Source: an uncultured bacterium (GTDB lineage Bacteria; Abyssobacteria; SURF-5). From it: a stretch of 64,000 nt of DNA. Below, piece by piece: positions 21,001-36,000 of the stretch. Position numbers: made by a program. How positions within the stretch are numbered: the first letter of the stretch is position 1; each line of letters starts with the position of its first letter. The DNA lies in contig CAZSKP010000007.1 in NCBI GenBank assembly GCA_964607485.1, forward strand, positions 58,117 through 122,116, read 5' to 3'.

Positions 21001-24000
21001 CGGCAGGTGCTCGATGAGGGCACGATGACGCTAATCCAGGGAACCTGCAGCTTGAAGGACATCGATAGGAACAAGCCCTGGCCCGCCGACATCCTGCAGC
21101 ACGATTTCCGGTGCACATCCTGCGGCCGCACGTTCAGGCTTTTCGTTGACACCTACCACGGCCACGGAACATGGCAGACACTCGCCTGAGCACGCCAGCC
21201 CTTTTTCCCTCCATCACAAGTACTGACGCACACGGCTGTGGAAGATTCTTTTTTAAGCTTGACACCTCGGTGCAGGCAGAGAGGAATTATTTTCATAGCC
21301 CGACTTCATACGGCTTCTATTTCGTGATTGTGCAACCGTGTTTGGTTGTTCCACGTATCGCAATCTCGCGCAGATCCTCAGGCCATAACATCTCTCGGTT
21401 ACCGTTCGCATCGCGGAAATTCATCCCGAGCGGATAGCCAAAGCAATATGTGTTATATAAAGCAATAGCCCGCTGGCACTCCCATTTGCCCCGAGAACGC
21501 AGGATTGCATAGTACAGCATCATCTTGACTGCATTGCGCCCCGCCTTCGCAGGTGTCATTTCCGACCATTCATTGGGAACTCCATCCCTGTATATGATCT
21601 CTCCTATCTTTCCCATGTACCAAAATGTCATCTCATAGGCTGCTTCAGCCAATGCCTCATGTGACCACCTTAGCGTAATGCGCCATTCATTGTCTCTCTT
21701 AGAAACAATGCGAGCCTTCTCGTTGGGGGGAGCGCCGGGATCGACAATGAGCGACGACTTTTCAAAGCGAAACGTCCGTGGCAATGTCCAGCTTGCCGGA
21801 ACAATAGCTACGCTGACAGGCGTATGTCTGCTCTCGCAACCAACATGTACTTGTTCGTGACCGCATGCTTGGTCTTCCACCCTCATCCCCAATCTGGCTC
21901 TCCGGAGGTGCTTGTGGCTTTGTTGCAGAACCCTCTTCTGCGAAGCCGGATAAGACTTCACCTCAACTACGCCCACTACTTCGACCGAAGCAGTTCTCAT
22001 CACCGATTGGTCTATTACAAGGATATGCATGTCGGCTCCTTTTGCGAAACCGGGTTTGCCCAAAACCCTGAGGGCTACTGCGTCTCCCATGTAAATTTGT
22101 GCGTTATGAGGAAGGCGTCCATCGTGTTGAAGTTGCCTCACCAATTGGGCGCACGGCGCAGCAGCAAGCAATTCTGCGAGAGCCCCTTGGAAATAGTTGA
22201 TGACACGATAGTAAATGAATCTGATAGCAGCGGCTGTATCGTCGTCGGAGAGACGCGTCGCGATCATATCAGGTGGAATCTCACCGCTGCCTTCATACGG
22301 TCCATCCCTTAGGAATCTCTGAAAGAGCATACTGCGTTCATTAGTTTCGATGGTGCGTATCGATTCCGCCAAAGACTCGCGGAAGACCGACAAGGGATCC
22401 AACCCGGCAGGAAATATGACCCCCGCAGCTAGGGCTTCCCGCACTGAAGCTTCTATGTCTTCTCCAAGGGTTTTTCCGAGGATCTCGAATCCGACTGTGT
22501 CGGCCAATCTGTAAGTGTGAGTGATCATTGCAGTGGAAAGGTATAAGAAAAATCCAAAAGCCGGGAAAATCTGACGAAAAATCTGAAGACAGGATACTAA
22601 ATTCCCAGAATGATATTAGAAAATACCACCATTTACGATTCTTACCGTCTACTGGAGCCACTGAGCAAGAGTTCAGCCAAGCCGCCGGTCAACCGAATTG
22701 TCGCACGCGCTCGTCGAGTTCGTCGTAGGGGAAGAATGTCTGGTAGTCGGCCAGCGCCGCCAGCGCGCGCGAATGGGATTTGATGCCCTTTTCTTCGAGG
22801 ATGGCCGCAGGGTTCAGTCCGCCGATGACGACCGCGCCCACCTGGCCCTGGTTCACCGGAATCTCGAGAAGCGGCTGGCCCGGCCACCCGATACTCATGA
22901 AGCCGCCCAGCCCGACTTTCTCCAACTGGTGGGCGAGCTCTATCACGTGGTCCCTGCTTTCCGCCGGCACCTCCCTGAAGCTGGCTCCGATGCGGCCGTT
23001 GCCGTTCTTCGTGGCGCCGAGGTAGTCGGTCATGCCGCTGCGGATAAAAATCTCCAGCGGGTCCAGCGTGGTGCCGCTGTAGTGGATGTATTGCACGAAT
23101 CGGGTGGGTTTGTAATCCTGCAGTTCCAGAAGCCCGCCGAACCGTGAGTACGTGGGGATGCCGTGCGACAACAACACGCCGTTCAACGTAATCGAACACA
23201 CGGTGCCTATACCCACCATGCCTTCAGGCACAGCGTCTTCGCCCACGCGTTCTCCGGGAGGCAGCAACGCCATTAGGCGTCCCATGGCGTAGCCGGCTGC
23301 GAACACCCTCTTAATCAGCGGCGCGGCGCTCTTCAGCTGCGATTTCTCCACCATGCTCACATTGACGACGACGGTTCCCTTCTTGCTCGAGAGGTCGAAG
23401 TTCATGCGGTAGGTGAGTTGGTCGATCTTCGCGGCAAGGTAGCCGACCTTTTCGATGATCCTCGCGCTCGCCAGCTCGTCCAGCCCCCGCCGCGTGATGA
23501 GCCGGCCTCTCCTCCCAAGATTCTCCGTCAGCCCATCCTTGTCCATAGAGTTCAGGTGGAAACGCACCGTGCGCTCGCTGATCTCATGGCCCTCGGCGAG
23601 GAGCCTCTCGGTAATCTTCGAGCTGCCGGTCGGCTTGTCGGCCTCCTGCAGAATCCTTAATATCGCGAGACGCTTTTTTTCGGTTTTTTCTCCCATGCCG
23701 GCCATTCTACCACAAAATATGCCGTTTTGCAAGTGTTAATCGGTAATTTTGCCGGTAATGACGGGAATGATGGAGCTGTCCGCTGCTCTCGAATCTCGCC
23801 TAATTCTCCGCATTGCACAGGAACTCACTCGGCATCTCCTGCCTCCCAGTCTCCTTTTCTTGCCGGGACTCCAGCTTTTTTGCCGCAAATGTACCGGTAA
23901 TTCTGCCGGTTAACATTGCCCTTGCATCTCAAGATTTGTCGTATTTTATGTGTATTTTCCTATTGACTTTTCTTGGGGCCTATGGTAGTATTGGCAATAC

Positions 24001-33000: not shown

Positions 33001-36000
33001 CGGGGATGCCTTTCCATCGACGCCGAGGGCCGTTCGCGCTATCGGACGATAGATTGGCCGAATCGCCGCCGGCTGCGCGCGCCGCTCGACGGCGAACAGA
33101 CGCTCGTGATAGACGTCGCGGGCTTCGCGCCGGAGGGACCCGACTGTCATTCGCACCTGCTGGTCGATGCTCACCGATTGGGCTGGAGGAGGTTCATCGC
33201 ATACGGCTTCAAGGGCGAGCGCTTTTCAGGATGCGGCTTCGGGCCGCACACCGAAGGCGTTGTGCTCGACCTGTACGACAGCACGGGCGACTATGTCGCC
33301 TCGGGGATAGACGGGATGGAGGTGTACATCCACGGCAACGGCCAGGACCAGTTGGCCCAGATTACGAAGGAGGGCAAGCTGGTCGTTTATGGAGACGTGG
33401 GCCAGACCTTCATGTACGGCGCCAAGGGCGGCTCGGTGTACGTGATGGGCAACGCGGCGGGCCGTCCGCTCATCAACGCGGTCGGCCGTCCCCGCGTGGT
33501 GATTAACGGCACCTGCCTCGATTATCTGGCTGAATCGTTTATGGCGGGCGACGCGCTCAGGGGCGGCGGCTTCGTGGTGCTCAACGCAGTCGAGTTCGAC
33601 GAGGACGGCAACGTTCGCGACCTGGCTCTGCCCTATCCCGGCTCAAACCTGTTTTCGCTTGCTTCGGGCGGGGCCATCTATGTCCGCGACCCGCACAATC
33701 TCACCATCGACGAACAGCTCAACGGGGGTGAGCTGGTGCCGATGTCGAGAGAGGATTGGGAGTTGATCCTTCCCGTTCTTGAGGAGAACGAGCGACTTTT
33801 TGGCATTTCCATCCGAGACCACTTGCTGAAGATAGACGGGCAGCTCAGGCGCCCCGAGGACGTGTATCGCAAGGTCCGTCCCGTAAAGCTGGCCGTTCTC
33901 ACCAACGTCGAGGACCACGACTGACGGGCGCGCTTGTAGGAACTGCTGTGAATACGCCTTCCGACACAGCTTCATCCATGAAACGACGCGGGTGTCGTGT
34001 CATCGATCTCGGGCTGTGTTCCTACGCAAAGGCCTACGCGTTTCAGAAGGAGGTCGTGCATTCGAAGTTCGAGGGCTCGGACACCGATACGCTCATATTC
34101 GTCGAACATTTTCCCGTTATCACTCTCGGACGCAAGGGCCGCCGCGAGAACATCTGCGTTTCTCCGGAAAAGTTGAAATCGGCGGGGATGGACGTGCTGA
34201 GCATAGACCGGGGAGGCGACGTCACCTACCACGGTCCCGGCCAGCTCGTCGGGTACCCCGTCCTGGACCTGAGGGCCCACAGGCAGGACGTCCACTGGAT
34301 TCTGAGACAGCTCGAAGAGGTACTCACGGTTTCGCTCAGGCGCATGGGAATAGATGCGCGGACCGAACCCGGGCTGACGGGCGTGTGGGTTGGCGGCGCG
34401 AAGATAGCCGCCATCGGCATCGGCGTCAGCCACTGGGTGACCTTCCATGGATTCGCCCTGAACGTCGCACCGATGATGAGGCATTTCGAACTGATTATTC
34501 CCTGCGGACTTAAGGATAAGCCCGTCACGTGCGTGCGCGACGTGCTCGGGCAAACGCCGGACATGGATGAGGTTAAGCGCATCGTGGCCGAGAGTTTTTG
34601 CGAAACGTTCGGGCTGGAACGGGTGCACGCTTGATTTTCCGACCGCTTGAAGCTATGATATAGTATAGAGTTACTTTGCGTGACTTGGTGAGCTTATGAA
34701 CACGGAAATGAGCGACATACTTGATAATATGGTGCTGCTCAAGGCATCGGATTGCTACCTGAAGGTTGATGAGAGGCCTTTCTTTCGAGTAAACGGCCAG
34801 ATACGCCACAGCAAATTTGCCGCCGTCACTGACCAGGATATCTCCCGCTTCATGCAGACAGTGATGACTGAGTTTCAGCGCGAGCGATTCCAGAAAGACC
34901 CCGACCTCGACTTGGCTTACGATACCAAGAGCGGCAACAGGTTCAGAGTCAATGTGTTCAGGCAGCGCGGCCACATCGGCATGGTCATACGGCTCATTCC
35001 TTCCGAAAATCTCAGCTTCAATTTTCTGCACCTGCCGCCCATTGTCAGAGAATTCGCCGAGCTGCCGCGCGGGCTTGTCATAGTATCTGGCGCGACGGGA
35101 AGCGGAAAGACGACCACTCAGGCCGCGATGGTTGATCACATCAACACCAATTTTCACAAGCACGTTGTGACCGTCGAGGACCCCATAGAGTTCATCCACT
35201 ACAACAAGAAGAGCATCATAAACCAGCGCGAAGTGGGCTACGACACCAATTCCTTCGGCGATGCGCTGAAACACGTGGTCAGGCAGAGCCCCGACGTGAT
35301 TCTCATCGGGGAAATGCGCGACCTGGAGACGATGCTCGTCGCGCTGTCGGCGGCCCAGACGGGGCATCTCGTCATTACCACGCTCCACAATGTCGATACG
35401 GCGCAGACGCTCGACAGGATCATAAACTACTTTCCGGAATACATGAGGCATCAGATTCGGCTCGAGCTGTCGCTGTGTCTCAAGGGCGTCGTCTGCATGC
35501 GTCTCATTGCGCGGAAAGACGGCAAGGGCCGGATTCCCGCCGTCGAAGTCATGCGCACGACACCCGTCATACGGAAGCTGCTCCTCGAGGGCAACACGAA
35601 GACGGTGCCCGATTACATCAAAGAGGGACGCGAATTCGGAATGCAGACGTTCAACCAGGCCCTGCTCGACCTCTTTCAAGAAGGCTTGATCAGCTATGAG
35701 GATGCGCTCCAGAACGCTTCCAACCCCGAGGAGTTCAAGCTTAACGCCCAGGGAATGTTCACGGGCACCGATTCCATCAGGGCGAAACAGACAATGGAAG
35801 ATCCGTATTAGGAGAACCGACATGGATGCTCACCGTTCAGTTGAGCCGACCATTCCCGACGTGGCGAGGAATGGCGGCCGTGTTGATATGAAAAGCCTTT
35901 TCGACCTGGTCATGGTGCGGGGCGCCTCGGACCTCCTGCTGACCGCGGGCGCGCCGCCGCTGCTCAGGATCAACGGCGAGCTGAAGGCCACCGAGTATCC

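Follow-up and report, generated by a model that had tools for sequence, protein, structure and literature searches.

Gene content and predicted control sites of the locus

The window analysed here, a stretch of 64,000 nucleotides from an uncultured bacterium of the Abyssobacteria (SURF-5), contains all eight open reading frames reported in a preliminary description, each belonging to the family named there. The first is nrpR (22689..23732, reverse strand; PF01995, E 1e-80, and PF08461), which encodes a nitrogen repressor with HTH and NRD domains. Its likely true start is the ATG at 23696, and a promoter-like site lies at 23732-23704 on the same strand. Divergent from it runs gltB535 (24151..25758, forward strand, as are all stranded features below; PF01645, E 4e-17), encoding a stand-alone FMN-barrel protein of the glutamate synthase family with an N-terminal Cys cluster, which aligns with B2b (see below) at 27% over 232 aa. 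It is preceded by a promoter-like site, TTGACT-17-TAGTAT, followed by a palindrome (together 23963..24006). The palindrome, GGCAA-N4-TTGCC (23993-24006), is a candidate NrpR operator. Similar palindromes occur 5' of gltB535 in L173 (directly past the -10) and L175, and between nrpR and mvhD in L058; the genome holds eight exact copies, close to the roughly five estimated by chance, which makes it a weak candidate.

gltB535 had been described as the first gene of the operon. It is closed, however, by an intrinsic-terminator-like hairpin of 14 pairs (11 G-C) with a T tail (25789..25830), and a separate sigma-70-like promoter, TTGCAA-17-TATCAT (26048..26076), precedes mvhD. The terminator scan returned 11 sites versus 10.3 in shuffled sequences, the stem of this hairpin being the longest by far. 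By eye, similar hexamers lie 5' of mvhD in loci of the same family, including ones without nrpR-gltB535; this pair is upstream in only two of the eight own-family loci showing mvhD, and in a set of 80 GTDB loci gltB535 was near B2a in 8 and nrpR in 6. Judged by sequence, nrpR and gltB535 are thus a neighbouring separate unit with its own promoter, and not a core part of the operon.

The remaining six genes, mvhD-metV-metF-gltB2a-gltB2b-gat/gxgxg, are best explained as one operon for the main glutamate synthase of the cell. The gap between mvhD and metV is widened by multicopy palindromic REP-like repeats (26615..26770), with at most 34 genome matches per position; in four loci (L170, L171, L175 and L177) the two reading frames overlap. 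Similar repeats are also found at about 25833-25959.

Relatives of B2a were detected in 10 of 11 genomes of the same phylum and in 86 of 301 genomes sampled from the phylum of a Desulfomonile genome, and at least 577 were confirmed among the 600 GTDB matches listed. Within the 80-locus set, mvhD was present in 61 of the 62 loci having at least 2.5 kb upstream, and the 45 loci with full context carried mvhD (45), MetV (38) and MetF (36). The neighbourhood is rich in nitrogen genes: glnA lay near B2a in 24, P-II in 19 and amt in 16 of the 80 loci, glnA was nearby in 27 of the 60 loci of a second sample, and glnD and glutamine-dependent NAD synthetase occurred as further neighbours. No other gltB-type gene was found by tblastn in this 97.5%-complete genome. 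A conventional synthase was absent from the matches listed for 35 of 50 genomes and was present alongside in the other 15. These 15 genomes, and two genes of the Glu/Leu/Phe/Val-dehydrogenase family in this genome, count against the role proposed for the operon. The window operon has no gltD; GltD-like domains in the loci of relatives lie within HdrL or are part of a second synthase.

Subunits of the split synthase

The last gene (31315..33924; PF13522, PF01493) encodes a class II (PurF-type) glutamine amidotransferase (GATase) fused to a C-terminal GXGXG beta-helix, for which PF01493 scored above the cut-off; the reading frame is extendable to a TTG at 31276. The codon of the catalytic Cys is at 31408-31410, and the propeptide before it ends in EEGG. 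The resulting EGGC is invariant in 22 rows, as are Cys1 itself and the HQR, HNGD and TDTE motifs, and in the model the Cys aligns to Cys1 of glutamate synthase (GltS; residue 1 of 1ea0/1ofd). From Cys1 to the C-terminal helix domain, the model superposes on GltS over 570-589 residues (4.0-4.6 A, Z 20.7-22.6).

The FMN synthase subunit is encoded by gltB2b (29789..31297; PF01645, E 2e-92; alignment with 2vdc, E 5e-50). B2b has the KxxQGAKPG loop, the GGTG loop, a C-terminal Fe-S cluster, and residues aligned to GltS E886, K931, K937, R957, E978 and K999. These synthase residues are invariant or nearly so (120-121 of 121 fusions). Taken together, the subunits very probably form a glutamate synthase, an enzyme type that brings nitrogen from ammonia into amino acids by turning glutamine, 2-oxoglutarate and two electrons into two glutamates.

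MgsABC, an enzyme of methylamine use whose genes cluster with gmaS/mgd genes, has the same three domain types as this split synthase, and the presence of MetVF in the operon hints at C1 chemistry. It is nevertheless very unlikely that we are dealing with an N-methylglutamate-synthase-like enzyme, or with a catabolic one that connects nitrogen from amines with the C1 pool of folate, since the glutaminase motifs and the synthase residues (the E978 equivalent included) are invariant, the neighbours are glnA, P-II, amt, glnD and glutamine-dependent NAD synthetase, and in most genomes this is the sole synthase of its kind among the matches listed.

The adjacent gltB2a (28420..29823) encodes a predicted flavin-free paralog of B2b with an N-terminal dicluster and a C-terminal 4-Cys cluster. 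As previously described, it lacks the KxxQGAKPG loop; its Cys clusters are not extra, since the same 8+4 Cys recur in B2b (where in this genome a Gly replaces the second Cys of the first cluster) and the N-terminal dicluster is found in three ordinary split GltB2. The two paralogs are fused in 14 of the 80 loci and in all 120 matches listed in a separate search. One naturally occurring B2a-B2b fusion was modelled with AF2 (pLDDT 86.6, pTM 0.90); the model, which may lean on known GltS structures, superposes on residues 448-1184 of 1ea0 over 633 residues (3.5 A, Z 34.7); in GltS the central domain spans 423-780 and the synthase domain 781-1202 (PMC8097209). By sequence, B2a resembles the central domain weakly (hhalign 58%, E 1e-4), and a segment-profile search for it found nothing. 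B2a is therefore best read as a stand-in for the flavin-free central domain, whose barrel lines the ammonia tunnel, and as its counterpart by position, with the added role of an electron port. In the models, B2a, B2b and GATase-GXGXG between them account for all of the GltS alpha subunit.

MvhD2 and a proposed electron port on B2a

The first gene of the operon, mvhD2 (26174..26575, most likely starting at GTG 26174; PF02662), encodes a divergent MvhD, a predicted [2Fe-2S] adaptor whose profile matches solved MvhD chains (9sfi_K, E 2e-31; 5odc_D, E 4e-30). The reported invariance of C38, C63 and C68 was confirmed and extends to C9 in all 67 aligned rows (66 of 69 locus copies plus the window). 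None of these 67 operon copies has the N-terminal segment CxxCxYxxAD(xAGxxRxxY), while CxxCxYxxAD is present in HdrA-adjacent MvhD copies and in both solved chains shown, suggesting that the motif may be the HdrA-facing surface of MvhD.

MvhD had been called the constant partner of this synthase. It is the usual one, but 11 loci, partly related to one another, carry a FAD-linked oxidase instead (in L191, L084 and L085 as an N-terminal fusion with B2a) and 9 have neither, which gives at least three input states, MvhD being one of them. The C-terminal 4-Cys cluster of B2a follows this division, being present in 132 of 134 MvhD loci, 0 of 11 FAD-oxidase loci and 2 of 9 loci with neither. A complex prediction for B2a and MvhD gave an ipSAE of 0.55 (best of three controls 0.00; one of three runs 0.00). 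In this band, according to the tool, predictions fail more often than they hold, except where the pairing was already probable. Of 157 solved pairs 116 attained the mark, as did 2 of 215 mismatched ones, and 18 of the solved pairs and both mismatches scored at or below 0.60. Contacts agreed to at least 72%, with a partner pLDDT of at least 78. We consider it likely that electrons enter B2a from MvhD.

Possible origin of the electrons and relation to known enzymes

metV (26807..27487; PF12225) and metF (27471..28406; PF02219) encode the Fe-S subunit and the flavin barrel of a MetVF methylene-THF reductase (MTHFR). They compare at 62% and 55%, respectively, with the copies in the ACS cluster, which, as had been noted, are a separate second set; this cluster has the order hdrC-hdrB-hdrA-mvhD-folD-metV-metF-cooS and spans contigs C75 and C60, whose ends share 9 bases. 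ACS itself was seen in 72 of 86 B2a-positive and 127 of 215 B2a-negative genomes, a modest enrichment uncorrected for kinship, and was not seen in 14 of the 86. The pterin-binding residues of MTHFR, Glu28/Asp120/Gln183 (PMC11868366), have intact equivalents in the window MetF (E21, D110 and Q196), and the triad is kept in 73 of 85 MetF rows. The Asp is absent from 10 operon MetF, most of them on long branches and 6 with hdrA in cis; L046 has Hdr in cis, yet keeps it. The pattern of the triad across loci suggests that MetF loses its folate site where electrons come from Hdr and retains it elsewhere.

These observations lead us to a proposal in four steps. The GATase would be cleaved to expose Cys1 and would hydrolyse glutamine, as its motifs and fold suggest. 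B2a and B2b would form a pseudo-symmetric pair rebuilding the central and synthase core, where the fold and residues of B2b indicate that its FMN may reduce 2-iminoglutarate to glutamate. The [2Fe-2S] cluster of MvhD2 may dock at the C-terminal cluster of B2a, as the co-variation and the weak docking prediction suggest, and electrons would cross the ferredoxin domains to B2b. MvhD2 would in turn be fed by MetVF, with MetF working oxidatively in the Hdr-less form, for a putative net reaction of methyl-THF + 2-oxoglutarate + glutamine giving methylene-THF + 2 glutamate. That the path runs from MetF/MetV through MvhD and B2a to the FMN of B2b, with methyl-THF as the main donor here, is plausible at somewhat under an even chance. 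One MTHFR is already known to be specialised in oxidising methyl-THF (PMC11868366), and the ACS enrichment also speaks for this donor. The 14 B2a genomes in which ACS was not seen count against it, as do the mvhD loci that show no metVF (see below). The step to the FMN would also be uphill, since the potential of methyl-THF is -200 mV (PMC9430772) and that of the FMN of A. brasilense GltS with 2-oxoglutarate bound is -270 mV (PMC8097209).

A close rival, possible but on the unlikely side, keeps the same synthase and MvhD2-B2a port and draws electrons from HdrABC-MvhD1 of C75/C60 in trans, with MetV(F) as relay or MvhD2 docking directly on HdrA; in that case electrons might be bifurcated, with glutamate synthesis as the high-potential branch. 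Hdr wiring is indeed seen in cis in a ten-gene variant, mvhD2-metF*-B2a-B2b-gat-hdrC-hdrB-hdrL-mvhD1-metV (L046, L055 and L104; L080 has NuoF/NuoG-like genes inserted), and hdrA-mvhD1-metV(F) adjoins the synthase genes in L100, L101, L113, L146 and L147. HdrA oxidises NADH in Moorella, and Sporomusa MvhD pulls down HdrA, HdrB and MetF (PMC9430772, PMC8760232). Moreover, 15 of 51 mvhD loci of the second sample had neither metV nor metF in the stretch fetched and 4 had metV alone, and therefore their partner must come in trans. By contrast, hdr genes are absent from the window operon and most loci, MvhD2 lacks the motif of HdrA-adjacent copies, the Hdr cluster of this genome is already equipped with its own mvhD and metVF, and a pure relay leaves the conserved folate triad of Hdr-less loci unexplained.

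The operon might also merely co-regulate separate enzymes, a ferredoxin-fed split synthase and a biosynthetic MetVF reducing methylene-THF for methionine, with MvhD2 serving one of them. In vitro, reduced ferredoxin can serve C. ljungdahlii MetVF (PMC8760232), B2a-B2b-gat stands without an input gene in seven loci from the phylum of a Dehalococcoidia genome, and in G033 and G049 the operon metF is the only MTHFR match. We nevertheless regard this arrangement as improbable: 45 of 50 genomes have at least two MTHFR matches, metVF stays with the synthase genes through rearrangement (3' of them in L007, L009, L012 and L013), metV stands alone between mvhD and B2a in several loci, MetF without the folate Asp is nonetheless retained, and the B2a cluster co-varies with mvhD. 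The earlier claim that nitrogen assimilation is wired to methylene-THF/Hdr electron flow, and not to GltD/NADPH, thus stands as regards the missing GltD, the MvhD-like input, the tie to MetVF and the nitrogen context; its donor we infer. On balance, this is probably a split glutamate synthase whose electrons come from a folate enzyme by way of a small iron-sulfur adaptor, and not from NADPH.

The donor of known glutamate synthases is NAD(P)H or ferredoxin, and F420 has been proposed for archaea. GltBD (A. brasilense, 1ea0/2vdc/6s6s) and ferredoxin-GltS (Synechocystis, 1ofd) share Cys1 and the synthase residues with the present enzyme and, in the models, the same four alpha-subunit domains in the same relative positions. 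Here, however, there are three genes, with GATase fused to GXGXG, and neither a gltD beside gltB nor a single-chain alpha subunit; the central domain is a full-length synthase-subunit paralog still bearing Fe-S clusters, and the C-terminal cluster motif has four Cys, against the three of the [3Fe-4S] motif of GltS. The split archaeal-type GltS (GATase, ferredoxin-fused GltB2 and a GXGXG-GltD fusion; in L018, L058 and L157) likewise has separate genes and a synthase subunit with an N-terminal dicluster, but a single GltB2 in place of two unequal paralogs, B2b being only 30-33% identical to ordinary GltB2. Its input is GltD-like or FrhB-like, including putative F420-dependent forms with FrhB paralogs (PMC9012536); here it is MvhD/MetVF or a FAD-linked oxidase. 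Homologs of MvhD, MetV and MetF are shared with the Hdr-type (type IV) HdrCBA-MvhD-MetVF of Moorella thermoacetica and Sporomusa ovata (PMC9430772, PMC8760232). The C75/C60 cluster belongs to this type, and the variant of L046, L055 and L104 also carries hdrCBA. The window operon differs in having no hdr genes, an MvhD of a divergent clade and glutamate synthase genes directly after. S6MTHFR of the aerobe Sphingobium lignivorans SYK-6 keeps the catalytic residues and oxidises methyl-THF with an acceptor other than NAD+ (PMC11868366); it belongs to a different subfamily from the window MetF and has no glutamate synthase link.

No description of such an MvhD-fed split glutamate synthase, common though it is among anaerobic bacteria, was found in the literature searched. 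We tentatively suggest, with some doubt, a third architectural class of GltS, in which B2a is an iron-sulfur proto-central domain and plug-in electron port; its commonest form would be methyl-THF-dependent, and sister forms would use Hdr (possibly bifurcating) or a FAD-linked substrate dehydrogenase. B2a would then serve as a living example of the duplicated barrel thought ancestral to the GltB central domain, and the duplication origin proposed for that domain (PMC5011417, PMC8097209) could be tested on it. The system occurs in more than a quarter of the sampled species of the phylum of Desulfomonile and in a dozen other lineages; being so widespread, and often the sole synthase of its kind, it is probably the ammonia-assimilation route of many sulfate reducers, syntrophs and subsurface anaerobes. 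Should methyl-THF be the donor, this would be a new enzyme activity joining the methyl branch of the Wood-Ljungdahl pathway to nitrogen assimilation, which would take up the -200 mV electrons of methyl-THF oxidation that are otherwise hard to dispose of. For MvhD-MetVF chemistry, in which the route of the electrons is not settled even for Moorella and Sporomusa, the system would also provide an acceptor that is soluble and can be assayed.

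Limits of the operon and its setting in the genome

All eight genes named in the preliminary description are present at the locus, each matching the family given for it. That description counted gltB535, which lies with nrpR just upstream, as a member of the operon. We reject it as a subunit on three grounds: gltB535 is flanked by its own promoter-like site and by a terminator-like hairpin of 14 pairs, a further promoter-like site serves mvhD, and co-occurrence is poor, with nrpR-gltB535 upstream in 2 of the 8 own-family loci that show mvhD. The promoter and terminator scan gave site totals no higher than shuffled sequence, so it is conservation that carries the weight here, and similar promoter hexamers precede mvhD throughout the own-family loci, as judged by eye. 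The transcription unit is thus one of six genes (26174-33924), mvhD-metV-metF-gltB2a-gltB2b-gat/gxgxg. Among nine own-family loci, mvhD-metV-metF-gltB2a occurs in seven and mvhD-gltB2a in one, the last being cut. The gltB535 product (24151-25758), which gave no informative match to PDB sequences, is a member of a family of stand-alone FMN-barrel proteins. Many of the 50 genomes searched encode such a protein, usually on a different contig and without a neighbouring glutaminase gene; the gltB535 product may use free ammonia.

The wide intergenic gaps of the region contain multicopy repeats, palindromic in 25833-25959 and 26615-26770, and a Y1_Tnp (RAYT-like) gene lies nearby (19942-20706). A 403-aa ORF beside nrpR (21317-22528, minus strand) has lower GC and no Pfam match, and may encode a nuclease, judging by eye from a PD-(D/E)xK-like stretch. 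Immediately after the operon comes lipB (33948-34634), likewise in 6 of the 9 own-family loci; the wider set does not show this order. A search of the whole window genome for NrpR operators returned 8 exact palindromes, near the chance number, none before mvhD or glnA.

Judging from the names that its best B2a matches carry, the window genome (4.70 Mb, 97.5% complete) is close to Candidatus Abyssubacteria. It holds two copies of glnA and two genes of the Glu/Leu/Phe/Val dehydrogenase family; a tblastn search detected no other glutamate synthase gene there. Apart from the operon, contigs C75 and C60 carry an Hdr-type cluster, fhs-hdrC-hdrB-hdrA-mvhD-folD-metV-metF-cooS-acsB (fhs recognized by eye from the translation). 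The canonical mvhD of this cluster (C60; about 1530-2000 of locus L001) has an in-frame TGA at 1732, at a ligand-Cys position, probably encoding selenocysteine; in the solved chain 9sfi_K, too, this position is occupied by a non-standard residue. A third metV, on contig C69 (L002:1928-3309), stands beside a metF-like gene that has diverged strongly: its 417-aa product matches no Pfam family and has lost the folate Asp and Gln. The pair lies upstream of an indolepyruvate-oxidoreductase-like gene.

Three proteins and the alpha subunit of glutamate synthase

B2b matches glutamate synthase (GltS) of A. brasilense with an E-value of 5e-50, and across 121 B2a-B2b fusions its synthase residues show little or no variation. 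B2a, 27% identical to B2b, had been described as a degenerate paralog with extra cysteines. It is degenerate, lacking the substrate loop and the flavin motifs, but its cysteines are not extra, as B2b has the same 8+4. That B2a is a second active synthase was rejected, since it is without the QGAKPG loop, GEGG, GGTG and the Arg of GGxR.

The two proteins are fused in 14 of 80 loci. A model of a natural fusion (pLDDT 86.6, pTM 0.90) superposed 633 residues at 3.5 A on residues 448-1184 of 1ea0, a stretch that the domain limits given in passages of PMC8097209 place on the central and synthase domains. The GATase-GXGXG model (pLDDT 74) fits both ends of GltS in one superposition, with its Cys on Cys1. 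From these modelled superpositions, we conclude that the three predicted structures together rebuild the GltS alpha subunit. The assignment of B2a to the central domain is weakly supported by sequence: SEIVRPTRD of B2a resembles the central-domain AQVTNPPID by eye, and proof of this likeness failed, as a segment profile found no match in 6 canonical GltB and an hhalign comparison with a single sequence fell short of significance. According to passages of PMC5011417, the GltS central domain is a copy of the FMN barrel that has decayed; B2a resembles such a copy at a stage preceding the decay, whether by descent or through a parallel event. At residue 47 of the window B2b (29927-29929), the second Cys of the first cluster is Gly, whereas the 7 matched own-family loci and 120 of the 121 fusions have Cys there; the Gly is a private change or an assembly error.

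Distribution and the proposed electron input to B2a

A GTDB scan for B2a confirmed at least 577 relatives among 600 matches. The best 80 loci, by their record titles, come from Desulfobacterota-type deltaproteobacteria, Nitrospirota, Chloroflexota, Spirochaetota, Armatimonadota, Planctomycetota, Verrucomicrobiota, Lentisphaerota, Actinomycetota and candidate phyla. Where these extend far enough upstream, mvhD was found in 61 of 62; where they extend far enough downstream, B2b with GATase was found in 55 of 57. These 80 were picked by similarity, and we therefore drew even samples per phylum (cut-off requested at 90% completeness, per-genome values unconfirmed). B2a was present in 88/301 genomes of the phylum of a Desulfomonile genome (86 plus two giant fusions), in 14/301 of the phylum of a Dehalococcoidia genome, and in 10/11 of the window genome's own phylum. 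The system is thus widespread, as had been proposed.

MvhD had also been called the constant partner, and this does not hold strictly. Of the 86 Desulfomonile-phylum loci, 60 were fetched; they were chosen by hand, with priority for low scorers and ACS-less genomes, and the shares are therefore biased. mvhD was upstream in 51 (with metV and metF in 31, metV only in 4, metF only, within the stretch, in 1, and neither in 15); six had a FAD_binding_4/FAD-oxidase_C/ferredoxin gene instead, one had neither, and two were cut. Thirteen further loci from the Dehalococcoidia phylum had mvhD (4), the FAD-linked oxidase (2) or neither (7). The oxidase, about 615 aa long and uncharacterised, has FAD_binding_4, FAD-oxidase_C and dicluster parts; it takes the place of mvhD-metVF immediately before B2a in L062, L094-L099, L183 and L191. 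Its PDB matches were all weak (alkyl-DHAP synthase, glycolate oxidase, D-lactate dehydrogenase), it fell among uncharacterised clusters in the Atlas, and it lacks the His motifs of metal-dependent 2-hydroxyacid dehydrogenases. Two 2528-aa proteins (L084:4966-12552, minus strand; L085:324-7910, plus strand) combine FAD-linked oxidase, ferredoxin, B2a-like, B2b-like, GATase and GXGXG parts, and glnA adjoins in L084. Their GATase Cys is internal (SDCGVAA near residue 1663), so self-cleavage would cut the protein in two. In the input-less B2a-B2b-gat loci L184-L190, from the Dehalococcoidia phylum, most Fe-S motifs are lost, including the dicluster pattern of B2b in all seven; their donor is perhaps free ferredoxin. 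In L018, L058 and L157 an ordinary split synthase (GATase, ferredoxin-GltB2, GXGXG-GltD fusion) stands directly beside the MvhD-type operon.

The C-terminal 4-Cys cluster of B2a follows the input gene: it is present in 132/134 mvhD loci, 0/11 oxidase loci and 2/9 loci with neither (12 cut loci set aside, about two counted twice), and the two mvhD loci without the full cluster still hold three Cys. In L191 and the 2528-aa proteins the oxidase is N-terminal to B2a in one chain. Prediction of a B2a-MvhD complex scored 0.55 against 0.00 for the best control (runs 0.58, 0.55 and 0.00; contacts agreeing at >=72%, partner pLDDT >=78). The score mark was reached by 116/157 solved and 2/215 mismatched pairs, with 18 solved pairs and both mismatches at 0.60 or under, and the prediction weakly supports a contact. 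Operon MvhD keeps four Cys; the motif of HdrA-adjacent MvhD, seen in those copies and in both solved chains shown, was found in 0/67 operon copies. Gene order and fusions, cluster co-variation and the weak complex prediction moderately support MvhD-to-B2a as the electron port.

Electron donor and role

In L046, L055 and L104 Hdr is encoded in cis, as mvhD2-metF*-B2a-B2b-gat-hdrC-hdrB-hdrL-mvhD1-metV, where mvhD2 is the operon copy, mvhD1 the HdrA-adjacent copy and metF* the metF of this variant; L080 has the same with inserted genes. The content of two MvhD, one MetV and one MetF suggests a chain from HdrL through MvhD1, MetV/MetF* and MvhD2 to B2a. The pterin-binding triad of MTHFR, as described in passages of PMC11868366, is intact in 73 of 85 MetF rows, the window MetF included. 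Ten operon MetF lack its Asp: six have hdrA in cis, three have a cut context, and the last comes from a locus that has two mvhD and a ferredoxin gene. L046 departs from this pattern, with Hdr in cis yet Asp kept. (The MetF tree, a quick search with long-branch warnings, was used for branch lengths only.) Loss of this Asp mostly with hdrA in cis, and its usual retention elsewhere, would place MetVF upstream of MvhD2: where Hdr charges MetVF the folate site would decay, and where no Hdr is linked it would be kept, with methyl-THF charging MetVF. In L087, L100, L101 and L113, metV and a degenerate metF are interspersed with two copies of mvhD; the genome of L087 (G085) shows no ACS, and L100 and L101 have no GATase gene nearby.

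The couple of 2-oxoglutarate plus ammonia and glutamate lies at about -130 mV, and glutamine hydrolysis yields about -14 kJ/mol; on these values, methyl-THF-driven glutamate synthesis would be downhill overall by roughly 25 kJ/mol. The step to FMN would be uphill, since passages of PMC9430772 and PMC8760232 put the methylene/methyl-THF couple at -200 mV and those of PMC8097209 put the FMN of A. brasilense GltS at -270 mV with 2-oxoglutarate. Electrons may instead arrive by an Hdr relay, a close rival because loci with mvhD alone or metV alone show that partners can act in trans. ACS, present in 44 of the 50 genomes of the first set (the 50 longer loci of the 80), is enriched with B2a but not required (72/86 B2a-positive against 127/215 B2a-negative genomes; odds ratio 3.6, kinship not corrected for). 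Of the candidate donors for the window genome, methyl-THF is somewhat more probable than Hdr.

Genes near the 80 loci include glnA (24), P-II (19) and amt (16). Among the matches listed, which leave aside 42 weak ones, another conventional synthase domain occurs in 15 of the 50 genomes and not in 35; two or more MTHFR matches occur in 45, so the operon MetF is usually an additional copy. In agreement with the preliminary description, no account of the operon was found in the literature searched, which leaves out supplements and most subscription papers; subscription papers on the genomes of Desulfomonile, Syntrophus or Desulfobacca might report such genes. Passages on HdrABC-MvhD-MetVF, canonical GltS and putative F420-dependent synthases (PMC5736913, PMC9430772, PMC5011417, PMC8097209, PMC11868366, PMC8760232, PMC7325909, PMC9012536) do not link MvhD or MetVF to glutamate synthase. 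The assignment of the enzyme as a glutamate synthase is strong, and the variant encoded by the operon is real, occurs widely and has apparently gone undescribed.
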